Part shown: piece by piece, positions 19,022 through 47,600 of the stretch | How the letters are laid out: each line of letters opens with the position of its first letter | Numbering within the stretch: the stretch's first letter is position 1 | Assembly (NCBI GenBank): GCA_052327205.1 | Contig: CM126206.1 | Coordinates: forward strand, 81,778,001 to 81,842,000 | DNA length: 64,000 bases | From: Somniosus microcephalus | Lineage: Eukaryota | Direction of reading: 5' to 3' | The notes under the pieces: generated by a model | What the model was told of the DNA's origin: nothing | Databases searched by the model: none | What the model saw: the letters and a program-made list of their open reading frames with translations, nothing else | Translations under genes and position numbers: made by a program

Positions 19022-19596
19022 TTTTAGCTCTCTTTTTCTCATCTGACAAGGCACCAGTCAGCTAACTTTCAGAGCATGCTGCAAAAAAAGACAACTTACA
19101 TACTCAAGAAAATTAATTGTTTTTTTCTGAATTTAGGGCATTTCCTGAATCTAGGTCCAAAAAAAAAAATCAATGAAATCAGCTGTCAGCAAATTTTTTT
19201 GGGTCACAAACAAAAGAGAATTGCTTGTAATCAGAAAACTATGGGCTAGATTTTCAGTTTAGGCAGTTTTGGGGCGCTAGCTTTAGCGCCCGCCCGAAGT
19301 TAGCGCCCGCCCCAAAGTAGCGCCCCGTTGCCGGGAATTCAGTGGCTTCGCCCTAAGAGGTTGGTGGAGCGCTAAAAGAGGCGTTCCACTACTCTCTTTA
19401 GGCGCTAAGCCGGCGGTCCAGAGGGATAGCGCCCAGGCGGGGCGCAGCACGGGTGCGGTCATTTTTGCACTGACAGCAGACCCCGTGGTGCCGACCAGCT
19501 CTTAAAGGGGGAAGGGACGAATTAGTCTGCTGCCACGCCCTGCACACTGCAGCCTTGCAAAGAGGCCTCAACACTACTGCTCAGCCCCAGGGAGTC

Positions 19597-21645: not shown

Positions 21646-22008
21646 AGGGTGTGGCCAGCTTTCCTTTAATATGGCGGTGGCCATCTTTATTTTGCCCATG
21701 GTTGTGCTTTTGGAGGGCTTTTTTTTTGCGTTAGGCCGACGTTGAGGCCCGGTTTCAATAAAGGTGGAGTGGCTCCTCCCCAGTTTGTGGGAGTGAGTCG
21801 TTTGTTGGGCTTTTTGTGGGGCCCGTTTATTGTTTTTGGGGATTCATGTGGGAAGGGCTTTTCATTTTTGTTTAATAAAAAATTATCTTTATTCATGCAG
21901 TCTCCATGGTTGTTCTTCTTAGTGTTTGTTGGCTTCGCCGGCTGAGGGCTTGCGGAGCGGCTGCATTCATCTTCCCTCATGGCCCCTGGCCATTCCCTGA
22001 CAGGGGGC

Positions 22009-23169
22009 TTAGAAGTACCGTGTAATAAGGTGGCGTCGTGCGGCCCTTGGCCCTGGTCGCTCCCTCCTGGGAACGTACTCCTGCTCCTCCTCCTCCTCCT
22101 CCTCCTCCTCCTCATGCTCCTCCTGCTCCTCCTCCTGAGGTGCTGGTCCAACGTCAGGTGGCAGTGCCTGAGTCCTGCGGATAGCCAGGTTGTGTAGCAT
22201 GCAGCAAACCACCACAAATTGGGAGACCCGGTCCGGCGAATACTGGAGAGCTCCTCCGGAGCGATCAAGGCAGCGGAACCGCTGCTTGAGGACCCCAATA
22301 GTTAGCTCGATGATGTTGCGGGTGGTTTGATGGCTCTCGTTGTAGGCCTCTTCAGCAGCGGTCCTGGGCGCGCGGAGCGGGGTCATGAGCCAGGTGCACA
22401 AAGGATAGCCTTTGTCCCCGAGTAGCCATCCTCTTGGGGGAGGCTGTGCCTGGAACATGTCATGCACAGTACTCTGCCGCAGGATAAAGGCATCGTGGCT
22501 GCTGCCTGGGAAGCTGGCATTGACTGCCATGATGCGCTGCTTGTGGTCACAGACCAGCTGCACATTCAGAGAATGGTAGCCCTTCCTGTTGCGATACTGC
22601 TCGCCATGCTCCAGAGGGGCCCGCAAAGCCACATGCGTACAGTCAATGGCGCCCTGCACCAAGGGGAATTCCCCGAGTCTGGAAAATCCCAATGCGCGCT
22701 GATGCTGGCTCTCCAGGGCCATGGGGAAGGAGATGAATTGGCTTCTCCTTCTGAACAGTGCTTCGGTCACCTGGCGGATGCAGCGATGCGCGCCGTACTG
22801 GGAGATGTTTGCTATGTCCCCAGCAGCGTATTGGAAGGAGCCGGTGGCATAGAAGTTCAATGCCACTGTCACCTTCACTTCCACCGACAGAGACGTCCTG
22901 CACCTGAGCTTTGGCCGCAGATCTCGGCGAAGCAGGTGGCAGATCTCTGCAATCACCCCCTTCCGGAATCGGAGCCTTTTAACACATCGCGCGGCACTCA
23001 TGTTTAGGTAGGAGCGCTGCTGGCGGTATAGCCTGACTGGGTAAGGCCTACGTGGCCGACGCCTGTAGCCCCCTCTGCCTCTAGCCAGGGCTGCCCCTCT
23101 CACAATACGTCTGCGAGCCCTACGGACATGGAGCTGCAGCTCCGCGTTGGCACCCCATGCAACCCCCAT
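22009..23169 (-). CDS. Harbinger (HARBI1-like) DDE transposase, about 386 aa, uninterrupted
   Basis: ATG at 23169. Motifs VALNFYATGSFQ (HTH region), [64 protein letters not shown], and an acidic tail. Confidence 0.95.
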   Translation of the reverse strand: MGVAWGANAELQLHVRRARRRIVRGAALARGRGGYRRRPRRPYPVRLYRQQRSYLNMSAARCVKRLRFRKGVIAEICHLLRRDLRPKLRCRTSLSVEVKVTVALNFYATGSFQYAAGDIANISQYGAHRCIRQVTEALFRRRSQFISFPMALESQHQRALGFSRLGEFPLVQGAIDCTHVALRAPLEHGEQYRNRKGYHSLNVQLVCDHKQRIMAVNASFPGSSHDAFILRQSTVHDMFQAQPPPRGWLLGDKGYPLCTWLMTPLRAPRTAAEEAYNESHQTTRNIIELTIGVLKQRFRCLDRSGGALQYSPDRVSQFVVVCCMLHNLAIRRTQALPPDVGPAPQEEEQEEHEEEEEEEEEEQEYVPRRERPGPRAARRHLITRYF

Positions 23170-23844
23170 CAAATCCTGGCAAACACTCTAATTTCCAAAT
23201 GGCCACTTGCAGCGCTGTTGCCTGAGTCCAAAAATACCTGGCTCTTGCTGCTTGAAACCAGTTAGCTATCCTCCTTGTTGTGTCTCCAGAAATGCGTTGC
23301 ACAAGACTGTTTTCTGAAATAATGGATGGCCTTTATACTGGAGAGGACGTTCCCTTTAATTAGCGCCCCCCGGGGCCCGCGCTGGTTGTGTTGCGTTCCT
23401 TTTTCCAAACGCTCCGGCCGCCCGCCGCACAATGGGGCGGTCCGACTGAAGTTTGCAATCGGGGCGGCCAAAGGGCGTTGCACGAGGATGTGACGTCATT
23501 TTCTGCGCGCGCATCCGGGCGGGCGCTAAACTTTGCGCCGGCGCTAACGGGCAACTTAATTTGGGGCGGGGCGCAAACTGCGCTGCGCCCGGGCGCTACA
23601 CGCATAGCGCCCGGAAATCACTTCTCTTAAGGCGCTAACTGCTGGCGCAAGCAACTGAAAATCTAGCCCTTTGTGTTTAATCTGCAAAACAATTAGGAGG
23701 AAATATATTTATATAGTCAATATCCTGTGGTGTTGTACAAGGGGAGTCAAGACCAAGGAGGTAACTTTCAACCTACCCTGCCCGACGGGAAACTGATGGG
23801 GTCGGATTGGCCGCCTGTTTTAAAGCCTGCTCGTTCCATAATGG

Positions 23845-24413: not shown

Positions 24414-27400
24414 TGTTAAGTCCGTGAATGATTGAGACACGGACTAGCAGGAGTGAAAACAGATAGATGTTTACTGGTGGAAGTCCATAACAAAACTAAC
24501 CAACAGAGGCTCTCTAGCGCCTTTTATACAGGGGTGGTCACTGCCGGTACTGCAGCCTGAGACCAGTTATTCCCTTAAAGGTACATACACAACAATTCCT
24601 CCCCTTTTAGATAAACAGTACATAACATTCATTTAACAACTAATGATAACGAATTACAATCACAATTACTGTTGCTAGATACATTGGTTAAGTTTAAGCA
24701 ATTATAAGTTCAGTCTTTGAGGAGGCTTCCTGATTCTGTCTGGATAACGCCTCTTTGGAGTATCAGGTTCTTCTGGCAATGTTGAATTGGAATCAATGTC
24801 GTTGTTTGGTTCATCTGCTTCCAATATTACCGGTTCTGCGGTAGCTGCAATTGGAACGTCGATTTCATTACCAGGTGTATCAGATCGTGGTGTGGAGTTG
24901 ACGTTTTCCAGTGACTCTAGAATCTGGTCAGCATGGCGTCTTACAATGCTCTCCCCAACGTCCACGGTATACATGAGAGGTCCTTGTCGTGTACAAATCG
25001 TTCCTGGCTGCCATTTCTCAGTGCGGTAGTCCCGGGCCAAAACTGGTTGACCTATCTTAAAACTCCTGGTCGGCCTTTCATTCATATTCTGAAACTGCCT
25101 GTTCTCCACATCTCTTCGGACGTTTGGCTTAACCAAATCCAAGCGGCATCGTAGTCTTCGATTGAAGATCATGGCTGGAGTTTGGTTGGTAACCGCATGT
25201 GTCGCATTCCGGTAGGCAAACAAGAAGTTGTCCACCTTGTGTTGTAGGGGTATATCTTCATTACACATTGCCTTGATAGCCTTCTTGAATGTTTGGACAA
25301 ACCTCTCGGCCAATCCATTAGTGGCTGGATGATATGGGGCAGATGTGTAATGCTTAACACCATTGTTCTTTAAGAACCTCCGGAATTCTTCAGACACAAA
25401 CTGTGGTCCATTGTCAGAGCAAATCTGTTCAGGCAGCCCATTCCTGGCGAATATGGTTCGTAAAACTGTGATAGTTTTTTCCGTGGTGGTTGAGGACATT
25501 TTTATTACCTCTGGCCACTTTGAATGTGCATCCACCGCAATTAATAACATTGAGTCCATGAAGGGACCAGCAAAATCAATGTGCACCCTTTGCCATGGAG
25601 ATGAGGGCCACTCCCATGGATGCAGAGGAGCTTGTGGTGGGGCGTTTTGGACCTTCTGGCATCCTGCACAGCTCTTGGTCATCTCTTCGATTTCTCTATC
25701 AATCCCCGGCCACCACACAAACGCTCTGGCTAAGCTCTTCATTTTTGCCCCACCCAGATGACCCTCATGAAGCTCATTGAGCACTCTATCCGTCAACTTA
25801 GGTGGAATTACTACTCTGGATCCACACATCAAGGTTCCTCGGCACACTGACAGCTGTTCTCTTCTCGGCGAGAATGCTGGCAGCAGTGGTTCGCCATGTG
25901 CTGGCCATCCCTTCACCGTTAAATCATAGACCCGTGATAGTGTCGGGTCATTCCGTGTTTCCTTTTCTATGTTTGCATTCGTCACAGGGAGACATTCAAC
26001 TATGGTCGAGTGGAATAACTCCATTGGATCCACTGCAAGGTCTTCTTCTTCCACCGTCGGCAACGGTAGGCGTGACAATCCATCAGCATTTCCATGCTGT
26101 TTAGTTCCTTTGTACTCGATGTCATATTGGTGTGCCCCTAGGAAAAGGGACCATCTCTGCAGCCGTTGTGCTGTCATTATCGGTACGCCCTTCTGAGGGT
26201 TGAAAATGGAGACAAGAGGTTGATGATCGGTTAGTAGAGTAAATTTTTGACCGTGCAGATAGTGATTGAACTTCTTCACCCCCCACACTAGGCTGAGGGC
26301 CTCTCTGTCAATCTGGGCGTAGTTACGCTCGGCAGAAGTTAACGAGCGTGACGCAAAAGCTATCGGCCTCTCCAAACCATCAAGGAATTTATGTGACAGT
26401 ACCGCCCCAATGCCGTAGGGAGACGCATCACACGCCAGCCTGATTGGCAGTGCTGGGTTGTAGTGAGCCAATACTTCCTTCGAAGTGATTAAGTCCTTAC
26501 TCTTCTGAAAGGCCCGCTTACATTCATCGCTCCATTTCCATGCTACCCCCGTTCGTAGCAGGGCGTTCAGTGGGTGCAGAATTGTTGACAAATTCGGCAA
26601 AACCTTATGATAGTAATTCACCAACCCGAGGAATGACCTCAGTTGCGACACATTTTCAGGCGCTGGGGCCTTAACAACCGCTTCAATTTTGTCAGGGGAC
26701 TTATGTAACCCCTCTTCATCAATCACGTGGCCACAATACGATATCTGTTTCTTAAAAAATTCGCACTTGGGGCGGTTGGCTCGCAGCCCATGTTCCCGTA
26801 GTCTAGTGAGCACCTGTTCTAGGTTGTTAAGGTGTTCACTGTCATCTTCACCTGTCACAAGGATGTCGTCCAAGTAACACTTGAGTCCCCGGAATCCCTT
26901 GCAGGACTTGTTCCATCGCTCTTTGCCATATCGCCGGAGCCAATGCTACTCCGAATACCAATCGATGATACTGGTAAAGACCTTTGTGAGTGTTTATCGT
27001 GAGATACTTCCTAGAGGACTCTTCAACCTCCATCTGCAAATATGCTTGTGCTAGGTCAATTTTTGTAAAACGCTTCCCTCCAGACAGTGAGGCAAAGATG
27101 TCTTCTATCCTTGGAAGAGGATATTGTACTGTGTGAAGGACAGGGTTCACCGTCACCTTGAAATCCCCACAGATGCAAATCTTCCTTGGCTCTCCGGACT
27201 TATTGCTTAATGTTTTCTTCATGACAGGAACGATGGGTGTTGCCCACTCACTCCAGTCGACCTTAGACAACACGCCCGCCTTCTCCAGATTCTCCAGCTC
27301 TGTCTCGACGGCTGGACGAATTGCATATGGTACCGGTCTCGCTTTGAAAAACTTGGGAACTGCATTCTCTTCTATTTTTAACGAGGCGGTTATGCCTTTA

Positions 27401-29372
27401 AGCGTGCCCAGTTCTTGTTGAAATACCTCTTTGGCGTTAGCTAAGATTGTTGACAATCGTCCAGGAGTGACGTCTTCATCTTTTTTACCGTCCACCGTCA
27501 CTGCATGAATGGAATGCCAATCTAAGTTTATCTTCCTGATCCATTCCCGTCCCAATAACGGTGGTCCACCATTTTGCAGTATGTAGAGATACAATTTCCG
27601 TATTTTCTTGCCATTGTATTCGACAGGCACCCTTATTTTTCCTCTGGGGTATACTTTTTGCCCCGTATACGTCGTCAAGACGATGGATGTCTATCTCAAG
27701 GGTATGTGTGAAAATAGCTGCTCGTAGTCTCGTCGATTCATGACGGTTAGCGCTGATCCTGTATCCAATTCCATTTTAACTTGGGACCCTGCTATCGTGA
27801 GAGTGACCCAAATGGTTCGGTGATCCTCTTTTGCGATTACATTGTTAAGTTTGAGACAGCTTAGTCTCCTGTTTCCGGATTCACTATCGCTCATCTGGTC
27901 TTTGGAACTACTGTCCGTCATCTTTTGTACTTTCTTGTACGGTTCCTTAGTAGCCTTTTTGTTGTCGCTGGTCTTCTTCCCAGACCTACAAACTCGTGCA
28001 ATGTGTCCAATCTTCCCGCATTGTCTGCATATTTTGTCTTTGGACCAGCAGTCCTTCTGGTCATGGTTAGTTCTGCCGCAGCAATAACATTTTGCAAATC
28101 CCCGTGTCATTTCGTGGGTGCCGTATTCCTGTGGTTTTTGTTGAATTTCTGCAGCTCCCCTGGCTGCTGCTTCATACGATACTGCCACGCTGAAAGCCTT
28201 ATCTAGCGTCAGCTCTTTTTCTGTGAGTAACTTCTTCTGTGTTCCTTCACTCAGGAGTCCACAGACAAATTTGTCCTGTAGGGTATCTGCTAGTCCTGCT
28301 CCGAACTGGCAGTGCTTTGATAGCTTGCGTAGTTCCGTAAGATACTCAGCATTGCTCTCATCTTTGTGCTGAGTTCTCCTGTGGAATTTAAATCTTTCTG
28401 CTATCAACAGCGGTGCAGGGTTTAAGTGCTCCTGTAGAACAGCAACAATATCGTTAAAACTCTTCGCCTTCGGTTTGGCTGGAGTAATCAGATCCCGCAA
28501 TAGGCCATACGTCCTAGCGCCCATTAAGTTTAGCAATATTGATGCCTTTTTCCCCTCCGCTATTTCATTTGCCTCGAAATATACCTCGACTCTTTCCACA
28601 TACGTGGTCCAGTCCTCTAATGTATCAAAAGCAGTGATACAGCCAGTCTTCGGCATCTTGCAAATCTAAAATGGCGCCTCCCGCGCTTTGCCTTCTTCTC
28701 CGATTTAACAAAATGGCGCCTCCCGCGCTTTGTCTTCTTCCCCGCTGTTGTTAGCGCTGCTTTCCACGGTTTCTTGCGCGTATTCTTTTTCTTTTATTAT
28801 TTTCCCGTCGTGGAGCGGACCCTCTGGGACACTTCCCTCCCTCTTCTGAGGTCCGAACCCTGCCCAGCTTCGAAACACCGGCCGCGCCCTGTATGCTCCA
28901 CCCTCTCTCTCTCTCCTTGCTTCCTGACTCGCTGCCCGGCCCCGTTGCAGCCCAGGAAGGATCAGAGCACTACCTGCCACCAGCCCGATTAGCTGGGAAA
29001 CCACGGACCGAGGAACCCAGCCTGGCTCTGGAAAGTCGCTCCTGCAAAGCCTTGAACCTAATGATTGACGGTCGACGCCCATTTCTCGAGTTTCAATGAA
29101 CTCTTTTTTTCTTTCTTCTGGCTCCGACCTTCAACACGTTGTCGGAGCTGCTGCCGAGTTGCAGGTAAGTACGTTTCTTACTCGTCGCCAGTGTTAAGTC
29201 CGTGAATGATTGAGACACGGACTAGCAGGAGTGAAAACAGATAGATGTTTACTGGTGGAAGTCCATAACGAAACTAACCAACAGAGGCTCTCTAGCGCCT
29301 TTTATACATGGGTGGTCACTGCTGGTACTGCAGTCTGAGACCAGTTATTCTCTTAAAGGTACATACACAACA
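24414..29372 (-). mobile_element. Full-length Gypsy (Mag-like) LTR retrotransposon #1
   Basis: 181-bp TG...CA LTRs at 24414-24594 and 29192-29372 (5 differences by eye). 5-bp TSD GATAA. PBS TGGCGACGAG (29190-29181), complementary to the 3' end of tRNA-Ser(GCU). PPT AAAAGGGGAGGAA adjoining the 3' LTR. Confidence 0.96.
24702..28656 (-). pseudogene. gag-pol of Gypsy #1 (Gag with two CCHC knuckles, protease, RT, RNase H, integrase)
   Basis: Motifs CYCCGRTNH..C, LDTGS, YLDD, DASPYG, HEGH/CAGC, HIDFAGP, SDNGPQF, GLAERFVQ. One in-frame TAG at 27691-27693 and one frameshift near 26880. Confidence 0.92.
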
Positions 29373-31011
29373 GATAACGTTGACAGGAGTGCATACAGAC
29401 GTAAAGCTTTTAATAAATATACTATTTCATCTCCCATGGTGTTGCATACAGTATCTTGGAGAATACGGTCACTATCTTACCTGCCTCTAATATATTCATG
29501 TTGCTGTTTCTCTTTGTCTCTCCTCTTCCGCTTCTGTCTCACTTTTTCTCTTCTTCATTGCTCCTCTCTCCCCTTAATTCTTTTTGCTTCTCCTCTTCTG
29601 CTTCACCTTCTATGTTTTTCTTTTCTTCTTTTGGGTAGGAAGTGGTGGATGGTATAGCATGGTGAGGCAGGAAAAGGAACCACTAATGGCTGCAGGTTGC
29701 AATACGGTGGGAGACGTGGGGAAAATGTGCCCTCAGCATCTCCCAACCCATCCCTTCCCCAATCACTAGTGCTTCACTCCATCTTCTCACTCCCATCATG
29801 CCCCCCATCCCTTCCCCTTCCTAGCACAACCCCACCATGCTCCACCGCTCCCATCACTACCCCTACCTCTTCCTCTCAGTGACTCACTCAAACCCTGCAT
29901 CTTCCTCTCCCCCTTGCTCCACTACCACTCACTTCACTTGTAAACCTCCATCCAATCTCCACCATTTCTGCTCGTTTCCTGCATTCTCTTCCTGTCTGTT
30001 TCCCTCAAAAACGCTATGTTTGCTTTCAAAATTCAACTTAAAAAAAAATCTGCCTGTCTGTCTATCCTTTCTATTTGTATCCATCCCTTTGTTTCTCTCT
30101 CCTTCTGTCTCTTTGATGCTTTAAGTCAGAATCTCTCTCTCACCGGGGTAAGCAATTATCATTGACATTTTCAGTCAACAAAACACAGGTGGAGATAACT
30201 CATCATAGAATCTTACAGCACAGAAGGAAGCGATTCGGCCCATCGGGTCTGTGCTGGCTCTTTGGAAGAGTTATCCAATTAGTTGACTCAACAGTGTATT
30301 GTTTGGAAAATTTGAAGTAACATGAAGAAAGCATACTCTCTCTTTCTCGTCCCCTCTATCTGATTCATTTCTCATGCTCTATCTCTCTCCCTTAGTTTAA
30401 TACAATTTTTGAAATTTATAGAACACAAAACAGGAACTATGCGTTATCAGAACATGGACATTTATCTCTCTCTCTCTCTCACTCACTCCCACACACACAC
30501 TCCGAGCCGCTCTGTAAAACAAAATACGGAACATACATATTACCTTAAGCTTTTGAAATCTGTCCTCCTCTTTTTCAAAATGATTTGTGGAAAATAAAAA
30601 CTACTTGGCAAGAAGTGCTAGGAGGTAAAGAAAATTATTCCACTCGTAAAACTAACTGAATTATACTGATGTGTCCTGGAAAATTAAGTACAGTGCACAT
30701 GCTCAGACTGCACAGTTCAAATTCAGCCCACAGGCTGGACAAAAATATCAAATCAAAGATGCCCAGACTGAGGCCTTAAAGGAAAAACTTTAATAATGCA
30801 TTAAAATTCACAAAATACAAGTCATTGGATAAATTTATAAAATAAGTAATTTTTATTTGTTTTATTTTGTTTCAACCCTTAATTTGGGCTTTACAATTTT
30901 CGGTCAGAGAAAAAAATGGCAGCTGAAAGAATTATTAGACAACATTGAGTAATTTTTGCAAACCCAGTAGCCAGACTGCACAATCTCAAGGCAATATACT
31001 CTAACTATATT

Positions 31012-31261
31012 CAGCAAACTCTTGTTTAAACGGCACTTAATCATCCGGAATTCTTTAATAACCGGCAAAATAGATAACTGGTAATCTTGCCGAATCCATC
31101 CATTTTTCATTTTTCCGAGTCCGAGTTTCCCGCAGTGGCCGAGTTAGTCAGTGGTTTTTATTTTTTTGTGTTACAAATTGCCTACCTCTCTGTTATCCAG
31201 AACTTTTCATCAACCAGCACCATCCTGGTCCCGTAGGTGCCGGATACAAAAGAGTTTACTG
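31012..31261. mobile_element. Tc1/mariner (pogo/Tigger-like) MITE
   Basis: Imperfect TIRs CAGCAAACTCTTGTTTAAACGGCAC / GTGCCGGATACAAAAGAGTTTACTG, followed by TA. Same family as 63924-64000. Confidence 0.7.
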
Positions 31262-31512
31262 TAGTGTGACACCTTTAACAGTGAAAATACCTATCACAGC
31301 ACTACCAACAGGAGTAACACAGTAAGTAGGTAAAATAGCAAATGGGTACAACTGCCAATCCACAACCATTAACTACCCCAAAACAACCAATTAAATCATT
31401 GAATAAAACAATGAATCAAATTATTCAAAATCACTCAAAAATGTTTTGCAACTGTGTTGTGCAGCCATTTTCCTATTCACTTCACTCAGTATAATAAGCT
31501 TCTGACCACATA

Positions 31513-31863
31513 GCACGGTGGCATAGTGGTTAGCACTGTTGCCTCACAGCGCCAGGGACCCGGGTTCGAATCCGGCCTCGGGCGACTGTCTGTGTGGAGT
31601 TTGCACATTCTCCCCGTGTTTGCGTGGGTTTCCTCCGGGTGCTCCGGTTTCCTCCCACAGTCCAAAGATGTGCGGGTTAGGTTGATTGGCTATGATAAAT
31701 TGACCCTTAGTGTTAGGGGGATTAAATACGTGGGGTTACGGGGATAGGGTGGGATATGTGTTGGTGTAGGGGTTACGGGGATCGGGTGGGATATGTGTCG
31801 GTGCAGGCTCGATGGGCCGAAATGGCCTCTATCTGCATTGTGGGGTTTCTGTGATTCTGTGTG
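31513..31863 (+). mobile_element. HE1-like V-SINE (tRNA head, V-domain, CR1-type tail)
   Basis: A box TGGCATAGTGG and B box GGTTCGAATCC. V-domain TGTGTGGAGTTTGCACATTCTCCCCGTG...GGGTTTCCTCCGGGTGCTCCGGTTTCCTCCCACAGTCCAAAGA. Tail GATGGGCCGAAATGGCCT...TTCTGTGATTCTGTG. Confidence 0.9.
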
Positions 31864-32519
31864 ATAACCAAGCCCGCCAATTTCCACCTCCGTAACATCG
31901 CCTGTCTCCGCCCTTACCTCAGCTCATCTGCTGCTGAAACCCTCATCCATGCCTTTGTTACCTCTAGATTTGACTATTCCTACACACTCCTGGCTGGCCT
32001 CCTACATTCCACCCTACGTAAACTTGAGGTCATCCAAAACTCGGCTGCCCATGTCCTAACTCGCACCAAGTCCCATTCACCCATCACCCCTGTGCTCGCT
32101 GACCTACATTGGCTCCCGGATAAGCAAGGCCTCAATTTCAAAATTCTCATCCTTGTTTTCAAATCTCTCCATGGCCTCACGCCTCTCTATCACTGTAATC
32201 TCCTTCAGTTACCCCCGCCGAGATATCTGCCCTCTTGAGCATCCTCATTATAATCGCTCAACCTTTGGTGGCCGTGCCTTCTGTTGCCTGAGCCCTAAGC
32301 TCTGGAATTCCCTGCCTAAACCTCTCCGCCTTGCTACCTCTCTTTCCTCCTTTAAGGCGCTCCTTAAAACTTACATCTTTGACCAAGCTTTTTGTCATCT
32401 GCCCTAATAACTCCTTATGTGGCTCGGTATCAAAGTTTTTGTCTTATAATACTCCTGTGCAGCGCCTTGGGACGTTTTGCTACATTAAAGGTGCTATATA
32501 AATACAAGTTGTTGTTGTT
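31864..32519 (+). mobile_element. L2 LINE 3' fragment
   Basis: FHLRNIA.LRP.L, LIHAFVTSRFDY, QNSAA, ITPVLADLHWLP, LWNSLP, and an L2 tail ending (GTT)n. Confidence 0.88.
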
Positions 32520-32537
32520 ATACAGCTAAAAGTAACA

Positions 32538-32548
32538 TCTATCTATCT

Positions 32549-32586
<38 letters not shown>

Positions 32587-33257
32587 AACGGATACTTCTG
32601 TCTGTCTGTCCTCACGTGTGCGTCTGTCCGGCTATGCGCTCGAAAGTTATAGAGCGTACCTACGCGCGCGTTACCTCCAAAGAAAGCTTATGCTTCCGGG
32701 ACGGTCGTAAGCATATTTACTTTTCGGTCGGACGAAAATTGTTCGCGCCTTATGCAAAAAACCTTCAAAATTAAACTCATTATCTGCTACTTAGCATTGA
32801 TTGACTGACGTCAAGGTTCGACCAATCCTGTGCCCTCACGATTGACCAATCCTACAGTACAGTCCCCTGATGGTTGGCCAATCGGTGTGTGTGTGTGGGC
32901 GGGACTAATCGTTTTCATCTCCGGGATGTGCCAGCCATTGTTTCACTGCTTCCAGCTCCAACTACTCTCCTTATCCAGCTTTGAAAAAGTTAGTATCTCT
33001 TAAAAATAACATAACATTTACCAAAAACGTTTTATAAGTACTTTCACTTTCATCTTTCAAGGTATTAAAAGGTAGAAATGTTGCCCGGCAGCAGATTGAG
33101 AGAGGGACACAGACAGGGCCCAAAAGCCTGGGACTCGATTTAAAATGTTGCCCGGCACCAGATTCACAGAGGGACACAGAGAGGCCCCAAAGCCTGGCAC
33201 TCGATTTAAACCGCCCGCCCCAAAACAGCCCTGGCAAAGCCGGGCTCCCCCAGCTAG
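32538..33257 (+). mobile_element. Non-autonomous Helitron, unit 1
   Basis: 5' A|TC followed by a (TCTA)n/TATATAAA head and GTCT/GTCC repeats; the exact start within the microsatellite is uncertain. 3' hairpin AGCCCTGGC-AAA-GCCGGGCT (33227-33246), then CTAG (33254-33257). No TIRs or TSD. Confidence 0.78.
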
Positions 33258-33800
33258 TCTATATATAAAGCAGTCCGTCTGTCCACTCTCTGTATATCTG
33301 TCTGTCTGTCCGCTATACACTCAAAAGTTATAGAGCGTACCTACACATATGTTATATCAAAAGAAAGCTGATGATCAGGGGAGTGTCATAGGCGTATTTA
33401 CTTTTTTGTCAGACAAAAGTTGTTCAGACAATATACAAAAAACATTCAAAAATCCGCTCATTAGCGGTTGACCAATACTACCACTCATTAGCGTTGAGTG
33501 ACGTGATGGTTCACCAATCCTACAGTTCAGTGACCTGATGGTTGACCAATCGGTGCGTCACGGGCGGGACCTAATCCTGCAGCCTCCCGAAACTTCGCCG
33601 CCATTTTTCCCCCTGCTTTTCCTCAACAGCGAGCAGGGCAGCTGCGTCGGCCCGCCGGAGCGGGAGGTGAGTTGGGGTCACTCGGGCCGGGCCTCACAAC
33701 CGCTCAGCCCGAGACACAGAGCGGGGGAGCGGCAGCGGCTGGCCGTCAACCGCGCGGCCCTCTAAACTGCCCTGGCAACGCCGGGCCCCCCTGCTTTTAG
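33258..33800 (+). mobile_element. Non-autonomous Helitron, unit 2 (head-to-tail with unit 1)
   Basis: Starts TCTATATATAAAG immediately after unit 1's CTAG. About 300 bp of its 5' part is homologous to unit 1. 3' hairpin GCCCTGGC-AAC-GCCGGGC (33769-33786) with a degenerate terminus. Confidence 0.75.
33472..33672 (+). promoter_or_regulatory. Promoter-like module inside Helitron unit 2
   Basis: CCAAT at 33472, 33514 and 33546. CRE-like TGACGTGA at 33499, GC box GGGCGGG at 33562, YY1-type GCCGCCATTTT near 33597, and splice donor GAG|GTGAGT at 33667. CpG-rich. Confidence 0.55.
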
Positions 33801-35628
33801 GATATAGGAAACACACTACATTACAAAATTTTGATAGATATTATTAAATTGACTCATAAAATTAGACATTTCATTTTAGAAATGTTCCAACAATTTTCTC
33901 CTCACAAGTATACTTCTCTCCCTTTGTTCTCCATTGCCAAAGTTTCCAGACTTTTGCTGGCCTTCCCTCCCAACATTTCCTGGGCTCTGTGCATACAAAA
34001 GATTTGTGCCCTTCATTTTAAGACCTTAGCGCTTGTGCGTCCATCACCCTACCCAAGGGCTGGATTCCAAATGAGTAACTCAGGCTGTCCTGCTTTGCTC
34101 CAGCTATTGTTTCCAGGCCTAGATTGTGCAATTGTATCTGGTGCCCAAACAATCCCCAATCTGTATGACCGCCCATGCACTCTCTGCCTTCCTCTCCTGG
34201 GCCCCGACTTTCCCATTGCACGGCATGGCTACATTTTTTAAAAATAGCCCGAGTTGCTGAGCTGACTCAGCATAATTCCAATTTGCAATGCAAGATGTAT
34301 GATTTTATTTTGACCAGCAGGAGTGGCAACATTCATCCAGACTGAACTCACACGGGTCTCCATCCCCCACATTTAGAAGACTCTGAAGAAAATCAGAATA
34401 GTGAAAGAATTCTACTGTTTACTGATATAAACACTAAAACTGAATGAAAAAGGTGAATAAACTGCTATCTGGACTTTTTTCATTTCTGTTAGACCCAATT
34501 CTACCTGAATGCTGTCAGCTTCCAGTCCCCTTCACTCAGGGCCAGCTGCCCTTAGCCACCCTCTGCCTCCGCCGCCCCCCCCCTTCAGTTTTGTATCTGC
34601 CAGCTACTGTTGGACCACAGACCCTTCCCAAGTGCCACCCATGACCTGGTCCCAGTCCTCCCCTTTGCCACCCATGGCCTGACCCTAGTTTTGCTTCTCC
34701 TTGCTGCGCATGCCCATGGCCATGGCCTGGTCCTGTCCCAGTCCTCCTTACTCCCCACGGCCCAGTCTGTTCTCATTCCCGCTGGGTTATGGTTTCAGTG
34801 AATCTGAATTGTAAGAGTTTGAAATCTGATATACCGTCAGGAATCATCTCTTCTCAAAACCAAATGAGCTTATTTAGAAGCTGTTAGATGTAAAATGTTC
34901 GGGACAAATTACAGGACTCCTCGTCAGTAATTACTCAGTAAGTTGAACTTTATTAGACAAATGTAATGATATACAATTGTTATCTTTCCTGCTACAAACA
35001 TTTGCATCAAAGCAATATTCTGCTGAACTAACATTTACCCAGAGAATAATAAATTAATGGGCACAATTACAAAGGAGAATGAAGCATCAAGTTAGCTCTT
35101 CAAAATAGATCTGCACCAGTGATTGCAACTGACCCAAATGCGGCCTTGCCAGCCTCTCAGCTTTTATTTTCTGCATCTTTTTACAGTGTTGATCCAACAG
35201 CGGATAATGATCTCAATTCATGCTTCAGTGTAACAGTGGATCAAGAAGGATGTGTGAATGCACCGACACAATATTCATCAACCAAACTCATAAATCTTCG
35301 GCACTTTGATAGTGATACTAATGAGCACAACCTGTCACAGAGAAACCTGGGGCTGGATTTTGATACTGGGGCAGGCTGGGGTCGTGTAATCCGCATTTCG
35401 TGTTAGCCACCCGATTCTAAATCGATGTGGGAAAATGATGCCATTTTAACATAATTGGCCAATTGAGTTCCAACATGTGGGAACCCATGGCCAATGAGTT
35501 TTTCCAGTCTGAAAGTCGCCTCCGATGACGTCATCATTGCTGCTGCATTTAAGGTCTGCAACAAGGCTTGCTTCTTCTGCAGGCTGCCAACCTTTTGCCC
35601 TTGCAGGTTAGAGGCACCTGCAGGAAGA

Positions 35629-38600
35629 ATGGCCAGCCAGAGACCTAGGTCGGCACCCCACTTTGATGACGTTGCCCTGCAGGCTTTAGTAGAGGGAGCA
35701 AGAGCAAATAAAGAGGTGCTCTTCCCTTCTTCAGGGAGGAAGAAGCCTCCCCAGCAAACCAAGGCTGTGTGGATCCAGGTGGCAGAGGAGGTCAACTTTT
35801 TGTCAATAACCTGCAGAACCTGGCTTCAGTGCAGGAAGAGGTTTCATGACCTTCTGCGCACTGGAAAAGTGAGTATGAATTTCCCATCACCCTCAATCTG
35901 ATCCCCACTGCCTCTCCTCACCAGCACTCAGCTTTAGCAATCTCTTCCTCCACATCCCACTAGACATGGACATCCATGCACCCTTATCCATTCCCTCTCT
36001 CTCTATGGTCACATTCACCTATCTATTCGACTATGCAGCCCTCACACTCCCTGTGATGCAATTACAACTTACAACACACAGGGAGGGCCCTTGGTCTTGC
36101 CATCTCACTCCATCTTTGTCTCCTTCTAAGCATCTATGCTATGGATTCTCTACACTCACACATTCATTCTCACTCAAACTCCACTTGTCTCCCTCATTGC
36201 AGTAAAAGAGAGCTCACAATAAGAGGGAAAGAGCGAGGACAGGAGGAGGGCCACCCTCATTAGCCCAGCACACCACCTGGGAGGAGGCGGTCCTGGAGAT
36301 CGTGGGAGTGGAGGAAGATTCCCAAGTGGGGGACGGACAGACGGGCGCATCACAGCAAGCTGGTGACAGAATAGTTTTCCATCTCTCTCAATGTCATTGC
36401 ATGAGTCACTGATAATGATTCTGAAGCTCTAACAGATGGACTTATGATCATCTGCAATATGCAATGTGCATGTAACCTTGGCCTCACATCTCTGACTCTT
36501 TCCTTTACTCCCCAACAGGATCATCGCAAGCACCCGTCCCCACTATCCAGGAGGAAGACCATCAGCCTCAAGACTCCTCAGAGGAAGCTGAAACCTCTGA
36601 GGACACAGCGCCAGCAGAATTCACCGCACCCAGCACCAGCGCAGACACTCACACCTCGGAGGGAACATCGCAAAATAGTAGTGTTGTCACTTGGTGTATC
36701 ACAGCTCACAAGTGAGCATCAGCAGATTGTGCAGACAGGGACAGCAATGGAGAGTCCTAGTCAGAGGGCACAGGACTCTGCCAGCTCAGCTCATAGAAAC
36801 ATAGAAGATAGGAGCAGGAGTAGGCCATTCGGCCCTTCGAGCCTGCTCCGCCATTCAATGAGATCATGGCTGATCATCCAAATTCAGTACCCTGTCCCTG
36901 CCTTCTCCCCGTATCCCTTGATCCCTTTAGCCTCAAGAAATATATCCAACTCCTTCTTGAATATATTTAATGAATTGGCCTCCACTGCGTTCCGTGGTAG
37001 AGAATTCCATAGGTTCACCACTCTCTGGGTGAAGAAATTCCTCCTCATCTCTGTCCTAAATAGCTTACCCCTTATCCTTAGACTGTGACCCCTGGTTCTG
37101 GACTCTCCAGCCATCGGGAACATCCTTCCTGCATCCAGTCTCTCCAGTCCTGTTAGAATTTTATAAGTTTCAATGAGATCCCCTCTCATTCTTCTAAACT
37201 CCAGCAAGTATAAGCCCAATCGACCCAATCTCTCCTCATACGTCATTCCTGCCATCCCAGGTAGCAGTCTGGTGAATCTTTGCTGCACTCCCTCCATGGC
37301 AAGAACATCCTTCCTCAGATAAGGCGACCAAAACTGCACACAATACTCAAGGTGTGGTCTCACCAAGGCCCCGTACAATTGCAGCAAGACATCCTTGTTC
37401 CTGTACTCGAATCCTCTCGCTATGAAGGCCAACATACCATTTGCCTTCTTAACCGCCTGCAGCACCTGTATGCTTACCTTCAGCGACTGGTGCACAAGGA
37501 CACCCAGGTCTCGTTGCACGTCCCCTTCTCCCAATCTATTGCCGTTCAGATAATAATCTGCCTTCCTGTTTTTGCCACCAAAGTGGATAACCTCGCATTT
37601 ATCCACATTATATTGCATCTGCCATGCTTCTGCCCAATCACCCAACCTGTCCAAATCATACTGGAGTTTCTCGGCATCCTCACAACACACACGCCCACCC
37701 AGCTTTGTATCATCTGCAAACTTGGAGATATTACATCTAGTTCCCTCATCTAGATCATTTATATATATTGTGAATAGTTGGGGTCCTAGGACCGATCCCT
37801 GCGGTACCCCATTAGTCACTGCCTGCCACTCGGAAAAAGAGCCATTTATTCCAACTCTTTGCTCCCTGTCTGCCAACCAGTTCTTTATCCAAGTCAGTAC
37901 CTTGCCCCCAATCCCATGTGCCTTAACTTTACACGCTAATCTCTTATGCGGGCCCTTATCGAAAGCCTTCTGAAAGTCCAAATACACCACATCCACTGGT
38001 TCTAGTCTACCAGTTACATCCTCAAAAAATTCCAGTAGATTAGTCAAGCACGATTTACCTTTTGTAAATCCATGTTGACTTTGTCCGATCCTGTCAGTTT
38101 TCCAAGTGCTCTGCTATTAAATCTTTTATAATGGACTCTAGCATTTTCCCCACTACCGATGTCAGGCTTACCGGCCTATAATTCCCCGTTTTCTCTCTAC
38201 CACCTTTTTGAATAGTGGTGTAACATTAGCTACTCTCCAATCAATGGGAACTGTTCCAGAGTCTATCGAATGTTGGAAGATGACCAGCAATGCATCTACT
38301 ATTTCTAGGGCCACTTCCTTAAGTACCCTAGGATGTAGATTATCAGGCCCTGGGGATTTATTGGCCTTCAATCCCATCAATTTCCCTGTCACCATTTCCC
38401 TACAAATACTGATTTCTTTCAGTTCCTCCCTCTCATTAGACCCTATGTTCCCCGACATCTCTGGGAGGTTATTTGTGTCCTCCTTTGTGAAGACAGAACC
38501 AAAGTATGTATTTAATTGGTCTGCCATTTCTTTGTTCCCCATTATAAATTCCCCTGATTCTGACTGCAAGGGACTTACGCTTGTCTTCACCAATCTTTTT

Positions 38601-40494: not shown

Positions 40495-41737
40495 CTAAGC
40501 AAATCTGGCCAAGATGAGTGCATACCTGGCAGCAATGTTCTCGCGTACTGCTGCCGCTGGTTGATGGGCCTCTGCAAGATGTTCGTTTTCGCTTTCTTCC
40601 TCCTCCTCATCTGAAGAGGATATGTGACGAGCCACTTGGTCCTCAGGAATCTGCAAGCCACGGCGCTGTGCCATGTTGTGAAGTGCACAGCAAACCATGA
40701 CAATACTGGAGACCCTGGCTGCTGAGTACTGCGGGGCTCCACCTGATCTATCCAGGCATCTGAAGCGCATCTTCAGCAAACTGATGGTTTGCTTGATTAT
40801 GGCTCTGGTGGACATGTGACTGGAATTGTAGCTCTCTTCAGCTTCGTTGGATGGGCTCCTCAACGGCATCATTAGCCACGTCTTCAGGTGATAGCCCTTG
40901 TCTCCAAGTAGCCATCCGTTAAGTTGATCTGGCGGACTGAATAGCGGAGGCACACTAGACTGGCGCAGTATGAAGGAGTCATGGCAACTGCCAGGGGGCT
41001 TGGCACAAACATGCAAAATTTCTTCTTGTGGTCACACACCAGCTGAACGTTAAGGGAGTGGAAGCCCTTGCGGTTGACAAAAATACCTGAATTGCAATGG
41101 GGTGCCTTAAGAGCCACATGTGTGCAGTTCGCGAGAGCATTGCTGCCCTGGATGCAACAACGCCCTGCACCCTTGGAAAGCCTGCCAGATTAGCTAATCC
41201 AACCGCACACGCCGTGACACTTGCTTGATCCTTGGTGAAATGGATGTGATTGTGCGTGATGGCAAAGATGGCATCGGTTACCTGCGTGATGCAAGTATGT
41301 GCACTCGCCTGGGAGATGCCGCTGATGTCGGCTGCTGATCCCTGGAATGAGCCTGAGGCAAAAAAGTTGAGTGCGGTGTTGACTTTGATGGCCACTGGTA
41401 AGGGTTGTCCACCTGGTCCTCTGGGCTCCAGGTCTTGTTGCAGCATTGCGCAGATGTCACCCACTACCTCTCACGAAAGTCGGAGCCGCCTTTGGCACTG
41501 CTGCTCAGACATGTTGAGGTAGCTGACCCTGTGTCTGTAGACTCTGTTTGGGGGGTATCTCCTGCACCGACGGGCTTCCATGCGCTGGCCCCTTCTGGCC
41601 TGTGCAGCTTCAGGTGGGTGAGCAGCAGCTTGGCGCTCCTGCTGGTGCTGCTGCTGTTGTTCATGGTTCTGCTGGTGCCGCGGCTGGTCTTCGTCATCAT
41701 CTGATGTCCAGAAGGGAAGGAAATTAATGCCTCCCAT
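40495..41737 (-). pseudogene. Harbinger transposase with about three frameshifts
   Basis: Fragments in different frames: [62 protein letters not shown]. Confidence 0.9.
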
Positions 41738-42629: not shown

Positions 42630-44651
42630 TCAGGGGACCCTGGAGGTCAGAATCTCGGGACAGGGAGCCTCGGCGATTGGGGTGGCGACTGTGGTAAATT
42701 TTTACCTTTTATTTAAAAAATTGTAGGCGATGCTTAGGGTTGGTTTTCTGCCCCAGGAAAAAAAAATGTTGCAACAGCGACCTGAAGCAGGTTTTAGGCC
42801 CCTTATTTATGCATGCAAAGGGCCTAATGACTGCTTCAGGCGTCGGTAATGGGTGCCGCTTGTTTGTCCTTACCCAAGGACAAACCCAATATGCGTGCTT
42901 CCTAGTCGCCATTTTAGGGCCTTAGGAGGCCAAATAACGCTCGAAAGATGTGCGCTATGCAGCCCAGTTTAACCCCCCATTATGTTCTTTGTCTGCCACT
43001 CAAATCACTCCAATTTCTAAAGTGGCATTACTGCTTGCAGCCAACAGTTCCCAATTGGTTAGGCCCACAATGGGCACCCCTACCAAATGTCTCGGAACAA
43101 TTCAAATGAAGATGACACAATCCCGGTAGAAGCCAGTGATGATCTAGGGCGAGAATGTAACAAGGGGATCTATTGAAGAACGTTTTCCCCAAATCCCATG
43201 GCCTCTATCATTCCTCATAAGGCCACTCCCCGCTATCAAAGGCCTTGTCAGCATCTAAAGAGAGTGCGAGGCTGACACAGCCCAGACTAAATGTTGTTGA
43301 GAGGCTGCTTGACATTATTATAAGAGTACCCGCATGAGGTTTTTTTTTGTTAAGTGAATAATTTTAATTACCATTTTTAAAATAGGAGAAGGGTTGCATG
43401 TATCACAACTTTAATAATTCAAAAAGCATTATCTGCACAGTGATTAGATCTACGTACAAATTGATAAAATTGTGATCCTTCAAAGGCCAGTAGTTCCAAC
43501 AAGTACACTTAAATATCAGTATGGCTTGAAATAATGTATACAAAACTATGTGAAGAAAATAGAATGTCTTAATCAGTTTGTAAAGGGTAAATTTAAAGAT
43601 GTGTGACTTTGAACAAAGGATTGAATTCCAGCTTCTATCTATTTCATTTGATATTGAAGAGATTGAATTAAAATTCATTAATGTTCCAGACTTCATATAT
43701 TGTGTGTGCTTTTAGGTATTTAAAGTTTAACTGCAGCAGCTGTCGAGCAACTCTGAAGTAACTATGCTCAAAGCACTGGTTGATTTGACACAGAATGACC
43801 CCCATCCATTATCAGCCATTTTTGTGCCAATATAAACTAAAAACAAGATGGCTGGTTTTGTGGGTTAGCAATAGTTCCCTAAAACAAAACAACCAGTGAA
43901 TGCAAAACTCTTGGCCTCATAACAAACACAAAGAGGATGCTTCTTATTGTGGACCAGGCTGCATTTAGAATTTTCAATTCCAGTAAAATCATCTTTAAAA
44001 GAAGAGTACTCCTCAGCTCTGCGAAGTGTTTATAAACTAAATTTCATTTATTCACATCCTCACAAATCGTCCCAAGCAAGGTAGGATCCATAAAGGACAA
44101 GGTGCAACTGACAATTGGATTCTATTTTGTATTTTTCTCTCCCTCCAGTTTCTCACTCTGATTATTCTCCCCACCCACCCCACCCCACCCCTAACTTTCC
44201 CATTTTAAGACTGCAACTCTTGTGTGAATCCTTCCATGAATCACTGGCAGCTTTTGGATCACATGATCATAAGATAATTAGAGATGAGGGAGATCATTCA
44301 GCAGCACACAATCGGTTCTTACATGGTTCCAGGATTTCCACTATTCTAACTGGGAGCCCATTCTGCTGGCTGGTCACGCCAAGTAAGCATTCTTCAGATG
44401 CGGATTTTGGTAGGCTAATCAACACTGGATGGTCACCACAGCCTCACCTAGTCCCCTTCAACCCAAATCCAATCATGCCCACTTCCAGCAGGTTTTGGAG
44501 GACAGCAACCAGGAATGGGAAGCCTGGGCTATGAGCACTGATGACAACTGTAGTCCTCCCCACTACCACACAGCTTTATTTTTATTTTTCTCTCTGTAAA
44601 GCATCTGGAACATTTTACTATCTTAAAGGCAGTGGCAATGATGGTGATAAG

Positions 44652-47600
44652 TGATGCGCCTCAATAACTTCAAGGCTCAAAGTTAACTGGATAAAACAAG
44701 GCTTTTATTAGCAAAGAAAGATGCCTGTGTCTTCACCTAGCATTCTGCTGTTCTGCTGCAAGACCAGCCTGGGCTTGTCTTAAGTAGGGCCAGGTATGGG
44801 CGGAGCCGACACACCCAATGGGGAGAAAGGGGGCGGTGCACTATATACAATACAAGGTAAAACACCGGAGCAGGCAATACAATATATGTAGTTAAATACA
44901 GAGTCTGATGAATGACATATTTCATCACATTCACCCCTTCTACAGATTTAGTCTGTCCGGGGGTGTGATAGTCCTCTGTAACGGTTGCGGTGCCGCGGGT
45001 GCCGGCTGGGTGTCCCGGGTGACCTCCTGGGTCTCTGCCGGGGGCGCCACCGGGGTTGTTAAAGGAGTAGGTGGTGGGGGTACCGTTGGCTGGTGTTCTT
45101 CCGGGGGTGATGAAAGAATAGTGGGTGGAGTGGGTGGGTAATAGTTGTTGTGGTTGTTGTCGTTGTTGCTGTCGTTGTCGTTGTCGCTGTTGTTACCGGC
45201 TGGGGCGAGGTCTTTTATGGACACAGTGTCCTCCCATCCGTCGGCATGCCGGACATACGCATATTGTGGGTTGGCGTGGAGCAGGTGCACTGGCTCCACG
45301 AGAGGGTCCGTCTTGTGGCCCCTCACATGCTTCCGCAAAAGTACCGGACCTGGGGTGGAGAGCCATGACGGTATGGATACGCCTGAGGTGGATTTCCAGG
45401 GAAACACAAACATTAGCTCATGAGGCGTGGCATTAGTGGCGGTACACAATAGTGACCGTATTGAGTGGAGCACATCTGGGAGGACTTCCTGCCAGCGGGA
45501 GATAGGGAGGCCCTTGGTCCTTAGAGTTAGGGTGACTGCCCGCCATACTGTCCCGTTCTCTCGCTTCACCTGACCGTTACCCCGGGGGTTGTAGCTGGTG
45601 GTACGGCTCGTGGCAATCCCCTTGGACAGCATGTACTGGCGTAGCTCTTCACTCATGAAGGACGCCCCCCTATCCGTGTGGATATAGCTTGGCATACCGA
45701 ACAGGCAGAACAGGCTGTTGAGGCATTTAATGATCATGGCGCTGGTCATGTCTGGGCAGGGGAAGGCGAATGGGAAACGGGAGTATTCGTCCACAATGTT
45801 CAGGAAGTAAACATTGCGGTCGACGGACGGGAGGGGCCCTTGAAATCTAAGCTAAGCCGCTCAAAGGGCCGTGTAGCTTTGATTAGGTGGGCTCTATCAG
45901 GGCGGTAGAACCGAGGCTTGCACTCAGCGCAAGTGCGGCAGTTCCTGGTCAGGGACCGAACTTCCTCAATCGAGTAGGGTAAGTTGCGGGACTTTATGAA
46001 GTGGAACAGCCGTGTGACCCCTGGGTGGCAGAGGTCGTTGTGGAGGGTCTGTAGCCGATCCCCGGTGGCTTTGGCACACATCCCTCGTGAGAGGGCGTCG
46101 GGGGATTCGTTAAGGGCCCCCGGCCGGTATATGATGTCGTACTCGAAGGTGGAGAGCTCGATCCGCCACCTAAGAATCTTATCATTTTTAATCTTCCCCC
46201 TCTGTTTATTATTGACCATAAACGCTACCGACCGCTGGTCGGTAAGTAGGGTGAAGCGTTTGCCGGCTAGGTGGTGCCGCCAGTGGCGCACTGCCTCCAC
46301 GATGGCTTGGGCCTCCCCACGGAGGAGTGTCTGATCTCGGGCCCCTGGAGGGTCCTCGAGAAGAAAGCTACGGGCCGCCCCGCCTGGTTGAGGGTGGCCG
46401 CCAAGGCAAAGTCAGACGCATCACTTTCCACTTGAAAGGGAGTGTTCTCGTCCACTGCCTGTAGCGTGGCCCGCTCAATATCCTGCTTAATGCTTTTGAA
46501 GGCAGCATGGGCCTCAGCAGAGAGCGGGAAAGAGGATGCTTTCAAGAAGGGGCGGGCTTTATCGGAGTAGTTAGGGACCCATTGGGCATAATACGAGAAT
46601 AACCCCAGGCACCTTTTCAGGGCTTTGGGAGTGTTGGGCAGGGGCAGCGCCCGTAGGGGGCGCAATCGGTCGGGGTCTGGTCCGATTTCCCCATTCTCCA
46701 CCACGCTGCCTAGTATGCAGAGGCGCGTGGTGTTGTAAACGCACTTGTCCTCGTTGTAGTTGAGGTTGAGTTTTTGTGCGGTTTTCTGAAACCTCGCGAG
46801 GTTTGAGTCGTGGTCCTGTTGGTTGTGGCCGCAGATGGTGACGTTGTCGAGATAGGGGAAGGTTGCCTGCAAGTGGTGGTCATCGACCATGCGGTCCATC
46901 TCCCTCTGAAAGACCGAGACCCCATTCGTCACCCCAAAGGGGACTCTGAGGAACTGGTAGAGGCGTCCGTTTGCCTCGAAGGCGGTGTACGAACGGTCCT
47001 CTGGTCTGATAGGGAGCTGGTGGTACGCTGACCTGAGGTCGATAGTGGAGAACACCCGGTATTGGGCGATTTGGTTCACCATCTCGGATATGCGGGGGAG
47101 CGGGTAGGCGTCTAGTTGGGTATAGATGTTGACTGTTTGACTATAGTCAATCACCATCCGCTTCTTCTCGCTACCCCTCACCACCACCACTTGGGCGCGC
47201 CACGGGCTGTTGCTGCGTTCAATAATGCACTCCCTCAGGAGCCTGTCTACCTCGGTCGCGATAAACCGCCTGTCCTCCCAGCTGTACCTCCTGCTTTTGG
47301 TCGCTATTGGCCGGCAGTTAGGGGTAAGGTTCGCGAATAGCGAAGGCGGCTTTACCTTCAGGGTAGCCAGACCGCACACTGTGAGGGGCGGCTGGGTCCC
47401 ACAGAAATTGAGCGTGATGCTTTGGTGGTGGCACTGAAAATCCAGGCCCAAGATCACGCTCACACATAAATCCTTCATAATTAACAGTTTAAAATTATTA
47501 TATACAGTGCCTTTAACGGACAATCGTACCGCGCAGTAACCCGCAATAGTCGATATCTGGGTTTTGTCGGCCATAGAGATCGTGGCCTGAGTAGGGACTA

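Follow-up and report, generated by a model that had tools for sequence, protein, structure and literature searches.

Two short Helitrons lie end to end in the window, the 64,000-nucleotide stretch of DNA analysed here; each carries a promoter-like array of CCAAT boxes, and the second also carries an exon-like segment that ends in a splice donor. Where does this cassette come from, a host gene or the transposon itself? The original prediction was of Helitrons with a captured promoter, first exon and splice donor. The Helitrons, the promoter-like layout, the first exon and the donor all stand, as do their presence across the family and their mobility. The capture is not supported: the same block lies in front of the RepHel transposase gene, and no host parent was found among the loci retrieved. 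We consider it probable (about 80%) that the block of CRE, CCAAT, GC-box and YY1 motifs, together with the donor, is the promoter and first-exon boundary of the element's own transposase gene, and that it has outlasted the loss of the coding region.

The two units abut end to end and neither carries a gene. Their features are as follows.

32538 to 33257, + strand: unit 1, a non-autonomous Helitron of 720 bp with an A|TC start and a CTAG end
32538 to 32790, + strand: left terminus of unit 1, with TCTA/TA and TCTG microsatellites and a conserved left-terminal block
32806 to 32902, + strand: promoter block of unit 1, with a CRE, three CCAAT boxes and a GC box; a homologous block lies upstream of RepHel
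32905 to 33075, + strand: interior of unit 1, with an AT-rich part resembling the start of the RepHel first intron (L145, L075)
33076 to 33210, + strand: 67-bp tandem duplication within unit 1, common to the family
33227 to 33257, + strand: right terminus of unit 1, with a hairpin at 33227-33246 and CTAG at 33254-33257
33258 to 33797, + strand: unit 2, a non-autonomous Helitron of ~540 bp with a TC start and a terminal CTAG that lacks its AG
33258 to 33460, + strand: left terminus of unit 2 and conserved left-terminal block, up to 97% identical to RepHel loci where the two align
33472 to 33567, + strand: promoter block of unit 2, with a CCAAT box, a variant CRE TGACGTGA, a 32-bp CCAAT pair and a GC box
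33597 to 33607, + strand: YY1-type GCCGCCATTTT of unit 2, 91-97% identical to L089 and L139
33608 to 33672, + strand: CpG-rich exon-like module of unit 2, ending in the donor GAG|GTGAGT with its GT at 33667
33673 to 33757, + strand: GC-rich segment of unit 2 after the donor, partly a second copy of the leader module
33769 to 33797, + strand: right terminus of unit 2, with a hairpin at 33769-33786 and a degenerate end

Both units are non-autonomous canonical Helitrons of the Helitron1 type. The 5' TC terminus is present at 32538 in unit 1 and at 33258 in unit 2, and the 3' CTRR feature takes the form of CTAG in unit 1 and of a CTAG without its AG in the unit 2 copy found here. The terminal CTAG is present in 24 of 29 other copies of the unit 1 family and 25 of 29 of the unit 2 family, and a T directly follows the element end in 25/29 and 27/29, respectively. 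Unit 1 is preceded by an A at 32537, which fits an A|T target. The terminal hairpins have folding energies of -7.2 kcal/mol (unit 1, z -2.0) and -6.4 kcal/mol (unit 2, z -1.5), and despite these z-scores the sub-terminal position of the hairpin is kept across the family. The termini are shared with RepHel-coding relatives: 31 such loci have the same left end, and similar right ends with hairpin and CTAG were found in 5 of the 6 RepHel loci read downstream.

Searches of the genome (6.45 Gb) gave 3577 first-look candidates for unit 1 and 4811 for unit 2, figures that are not copy numbers; the best 40 of each were scored, with full-length matches at 94-98% and 92-96% identity, respectively. Head-to-tail stacking is frequent among the related Helitrons (loci L002-L030 and L032-L060). 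Another Helitron end lies just upstream of 8/29 unit 2 copies and 6/29 unit 1 copies, and a Helitron start lies downstream at 2/29 and 8/29 of these two sets of loci, in the order given. In the window, unit 1 sits inside an A|T whose A comes from the flank and whose T opens unit 2, and it differs from its family majority at 9 of 613 positions as compared to 14 of 470 for unit 2. Because of this placement in the start of unit 2 and the fewer differences, unit 2 was likely the first to insert, with unit 1 arriving later at the A|T that opens unit 2.

Copies of both families show the pattern of decay that is consistent with germline methylation. Departures from the family majority occur at 8.4% of CpG positions versus 1.6% of other sites in unit 2, and at 6.1% versus 1.0% in unit 1, a decay 5-6 times faster than at the remaining sites in both families. 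The window's own copy is probably both methylated and silent. Across copies, variation at the motif positions is slightly lower than at the other sites outside CpG; we do not read selection on the copies from this, since they were chosen for their similarity and the background includes differences between subfamilies.

The motifs lie where they had been predicted. The CRE is found at 32806 in unit 1 (TGACGTCA) and at 33499 in unit 2 (TGACGTGA), and three CCAAT boxes are found in each unit (32822, 32846 and 32878; 33472, 33514 and 33546). The last CCAAT pair is 32 bp apart in both units and is followed by a GC box, GGGCGG, at 32897 and 33562. Unit 2 continues with the YY1-type GCCGCCATTTT at 33597, the CpG-rich segment and the donor GT at 33667. 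The motif blocks of the two units are homologous (~70% over 299 columns), so their presence in both units counts as one observation and not two.

We compared the motifs with 2000 dinucleotide shuffles per unit. Three CCAAT boxes alone are unremarkable (reached in 492 and 188 shuffles), and the CRE (41 and 34), the donor (27) and the YY1 site (11) are modestly unusual. The ordered arrangement CCAAT-CCAAT-(30 to 34)-CCAAT-GC box, a pattern defined after viewing the sequence, was reached in 0 of 2000 shuffles for each unit. The motifs are family traits, present in most of the 30 copies examined per unit. Among 30 unit 2 copies, the window's included, at least three CCAAT boxes are present in 26, TGACGTGA in 24, the GC box in 23, the YY1 site in 20 and the donor in 25; among 30 unit 1 copies the corresponding numbers are 30 for at least three CCAAT boxes, 28 for the CRE and 28 for the GC box.

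The layout of CRE, CCAAT boxes, GC box and YY1 site is similar to that of NF-Y/Sp1/YY1 promoters, and a CCAAT spacing of 32-33 bp is linked to NF-Y cell-cycle promoters. A literature search on this spacing returned no match, and the value is absent from the accessible text of PMC8629999. The proposal of a cell-cycle promoter is unsupported: no CHR hexamer was found within 40 nt 3' of the GC box in either unit. An inverted CHR-like TTCAAA occurs shortly 3' of the GC box in four RepHel leaders only (L073, L145, L148 and L156).

Does the block also occur outside the short elements? RepHel loci were identified with the PF14214 profile (407 candidates, best 150 scored), and upstream DNA was taken for 54 of the 150 scored loci, mostly those with long open frames. 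A pyrimidine tract and AG lie directly 5' of the RepHel ATG in 39 of the 54, while 15 are without the acceptor pattern used. At 31 of the 39 acceptor-bearing loci the family 5' end is found upstream and no right terminus intervenes, and some of these ends, assigned across 4-7 kb, might be a neighbouring element's; at the remaining eight the family 5' end is not within the DNA retrieved. The 31 loci carry at least one CCAAT box in 29 cases, at least two in 23, a pair spaced 31-33 bp in 15, a GC box in 25 and an AG|GTGAG donor within 460 bp in 25. The order of CCAAT, GC box, donor, acceptor and ATG is conserved across diverged RepHel loci. The commonest leader form has a YY1-like GCCATCTT just 3' of the donor, and the distance from the GC box to this site is the same as the distance from the GC box to the YY1 site in unit 2.

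The likeness extends to the surrounding sequence. Unit 2 is 86% identical to L139 over positions 1-351 and 88% identical to L089 over positions 42-351, in both cases through the YY1 site, and its CCAAT block is 94% identical to both loci over 105-108 nt. In diverged subfamilies, too, the promoter block lies upstream of RepHel, with 66-97% identity over the left block, and it is continuous with the left terminus. The interior of unit 1 matches the start of the RepHel first intron (87% over 69 nt in L145 and 96% over 26 nt in L075) and contains a degenerate donor-like GTTAGT near 32989. Since the same block lies upstream of RepHel in elements with homologous termini, we assign the promoter block to the front end of the coding element. 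About ten PF14214 matches with an identical 351-residue open frame lie at 135-145 Mb of contig C4, which suggests local amplification of a broken RepHel.

In the coding elements, NF-Y, CREB/ATF, Sp1 and YY1 would activate transcription from a short non-coding first exon, which would then be spliced across a variable leader intron onto the exon that carries the ATG. Short derivatives may have formed by deletion or end exchange, and the block was presumably kept in them because it adjoins the left terminus, which rolling-circle transposition requires. In the lineage of unit 2, the donor before the YY1 site would have been mutated, with a duplicate donor module still present downstream. The promoter-like cassettes of these Helitrons need no host capture, which corrects a tempting reading, and the likely vertebrate RepHel transcription unit is outlined as a CCAAT array, a non-coding first exon, a variable leader intron and an acceptor at the ATG. 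A narrow literature search, mostly of abstracts, found neither Helitron family nor this transcription-unit layout described.

The exon and donor module of unit 2 is less settled. L089 and L139, its closest RepHel relatives, diverge from unit 2 right after the YY1 site; they are without the donor module and have no AG|GTGAG within 460 bp. In the lineage of unit 2 itself the donor 5' of the YY1 site is mutated. A search with the 134-bp module gave 1650 candidates (best 40 scored), and all 29 other loci retrieved lie within Helitron ends. In a sister family, a leader of the L139 type is joined to this donor module (1033 candidates, best 40 scored, 30 retrieved). The module aligns above all 300 shuffles to the RepHel leaders of L134 and L075, 2 of 11 leaders tested; for the other nine the alignment was not above shuffles. 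The module of L134 was in turn used as a query (479 candidates, best 40 scored), and a Helitron left end lies upstream in 27 of the 30 loci retrieved, the remaining three having leader-type flanks. Many of these homologues match the module of unit 2 at 73-84%, often as tandem copies, and the copy number of the leader module in the segment at 33673 to 33757 differs between family members. Twenty longer elements with the module were also examined downstream, and only one of them gave a RepHel match, which spans 45 residues. From these alignments the module is part of a shuffled repertoire of Helitron leaders.

One alternative is that the promoter is native and the module at 33608-33757 is an ancient capture of a host first exon and intron, since duplicated and shuffled among leaders. 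Its CpG richness, its consensus donor and its absence from the closest RepHel relatives would fit such an origin, and host sequence is present in the lineage, where the leaders of L089, L139 and L156 contain an RPL36 retrocopy. Gene 5' ends are preferentially amplified by bat Helitrons, according to the accessible text of PMC4224331. We nevertheless consider a captured module unlikely, because its homologues include the GAG|GTGAG donor found after the GC box in RepHel leaders, for example in L073, and because no host parent gene or other non-Helitron context appeared in the 29, 30 and 30 loci retrieved, although scoring the best 40 of 479-1650 candidates could miss a single-copy host parent. 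The parent gene that the original prediction had envisaged thus did not emerge from searches with the module and its two homologues, which met Helitron contexts only (best 40 per search).

A broader alternative is that promoter, exon and donor together form one cassette taken from a host housekeeping or cell-cycle gene, and the resemblance to NF-Y/Sp1/YY1 promoters would speak for it. The precedent is HelibatN3, which took its promoter, its first exon and its splice donor from NUBPL (accessible parts of PMC4778049 and PMC4224331). As with HelibatN3, the elements here are short and high-copy and have a promoter, exon and donor that face the right end and could serve as an exon trap. For HelibatN3, in contrast, a single-copy host parent has been identified and chimeric transcripts demonstrated (PMC4778049, PMC4224331), whereas the block described here matches the RepHel leader, and neither a parent (among the retrieved loci) nor a chimeric transcript was found. 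Helitrons of the HelibatN3 type would carry a promoter block foreign to the coding element; the block here lies upstream of RepHel. Capture of the whole cassette is very improbable, since the block runs on from the left terminus and is found before RepHel in diverged subfamilies (66-97% identity over the left block), no coding exon or parent was seen among the loci retrieved, and no CHR follows the GC box in either unit. In a variant of the same idea, the capture may predate the entire family.

The two units also resemble other known Helitron systems. They share with HelibatN1-3, as far as the accessible text of PMC4778049 describes these, a TC start, a sub-terminal hairpin, a CTAG end, a probable A|T target and the lack of coding capacity, and in both cases the genome also holds coding relatives whose ends are similar; HelibatN1-3 are mobilised by Helraiser (PMC4778049, same text). 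The host of the units differs in that it looks like a cartilaginous fish, to judge by the flanking SINE. Heli1Xen1 of Xenopus laevis is likewise a vertebrate TC...CTAG Helitron1 family, and the accessible part of PMC12001565 reports few coding copies, hundreds to thousands of short derivatives and a 5' end with a presumed promoter and ChIP peaks for Myb and Foxn4. The main text of PMC12001565 contains none of the words 'CCAAT', 'splice' or 'shark'.

The RPL36 retrocopy in the leader of RepHel-coding Helitrons (L156:6702-6971, L139:~6630-6895, L089:~6000-6275) is intronless, has a poly(A)-like tail and was identified by Pfam PF01158 (E 4e-38). All 30 loci retrieved (L241-L270, of 2107 candidates) have it behind a GC-rich block, and a Helitron left end lies upstream in 27 of the 30; the retrocopy appears to have been amplified together with its host Helitrons. 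It parallels HelibatN424, an RPLP0 retrogene in a Helitron (accessible text of PMC4224331), with the difference that it is absent from both units of the window. The GC-rich block that precedes the retrocopy in L156 (6470-6700) contains two GCCGCCATCTTG together with CCGGAAG and GACGTCA motifs; as a host promoter that was truly captured, in inverted orientation, it is a stronger candidate than the cassette in the window. No parent of this block was found in the 30 retrieved loci.

Is the native promoter and donor used? A search of sequencing runs for RNA carrying the window sequence found none among the runs listed. Two raw RNA runs (X8 and X9) have the same species label as the DNA run X3, a contig of which is identical across the right junction of unit 2 (135 of 135 letters). 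Mapping 24% and 31% of the RNA runs placed 1497 and 5120 reads on the window stretch. These are mostly 90-99% alike, so that the mapped RNA comes mostly from other copies. It covers both units in both directions, including the DNA upstream of any start, and few parts of the stretch have a lower depth than the supposed exon. At the positions where transcripts had been expected to start (33590) and to splice (33666/33667), no start peak was listed for X8 or X9 (24-31% of the runs, tissue not stated) and no loose end at the donor was among those listed for either run. Depth in the flank at 33820-33900 was 0 in both runs, and the strict acceptor pattern occurs at a single site, 35735, within 6 kb downstream. 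The predicted cassette is mobile and conserved; splicing into its flanks was not seen at the window locus in these reads.

A step in RNA depth was found at the acceptor of a coding element, L084. First-mate-minus depth rises there: in X8 it is 2-7 ahead of the acceptor and 32-69 past it, and in X9 it is below 1 and then 5-23. The DNA run covers both sides of the acceptor with no such step. This is consistent with a spliced sense RepHel transcript, in libraries whose strandedness is not stated; no joint of donor to acceptor on L084 was among the loose ends listed (X8 and X9, 24-31% of each read). Many RNA starts lie at L084:6217-6218, inside the presumed leader intron (43 at a depth of 107 in X9, and 5 in X8), and acceptor-like and donor-like sites flank a 17-nt stretch just upstream of them. 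That GC-rich transposon DNA with internal duplications produced the motifs by chance, and that they play no part as a promoter, can be set aside as extremely improbable: the CCAAT count alone is not above shuffles, several CCAAT boxes are internal duplicates (family D8) and family RNA spans the block in both directions with no start peak, but the order from CCAAT through GC box, donor and acceptor to ATG is kept across diverged RepHel loci and a rise in RNA depth marks the RepHel acceptor.

If the cassette is the transposase promoter, as we favour, some copies might still act on host genes. We regard it as possible, though doubtful, that the transposon's own NF-Y/YY1 promoter and donor escape methylation at some sites and start chimeric spliced host-gene transcripts. 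Such elements would be an exon trap like HelibatN3 that works from its own promoter, in thousands of short copies and with no capture. Should a share of the thousands of copies be active, they would supply alternative promoters on a large scale; of such activity there is no sign at the window locus.

Other mobile elements are found around the two units. Of 228 open frames of at least 75 residues in the window, 86 were compared to Pfam, and no host gene was recognised nearby, short exons being easily missed at this scale. The Pfam matches are to reverse transcriptase, integrase, endonuclease, Harbinger-type DDE and Myb/SANT domains, with one match below the cut-off to DUF5967. An Rfam scan of 30000-37000 gave no match, and no tRNA genes were found in the window. 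An LTR retrotransposon at 24414-29372 has 181-bp LTRs that are 97% identical and a gag-pol region split over several frames, and a second LTR-type element with 281-bp repeats lies at 44649-48990. Frames for a Harbinger-type DDE transposase and Myb/SANT proteins are found at 19474-23187, 35467-35898 and 40498-41031, and a 54-bp minisatellite is found at 19985-20258. In the first part of the window (1-2410), fragments of LINE reverse transcriptase form a large inverted layout that is 89% self-complementary.
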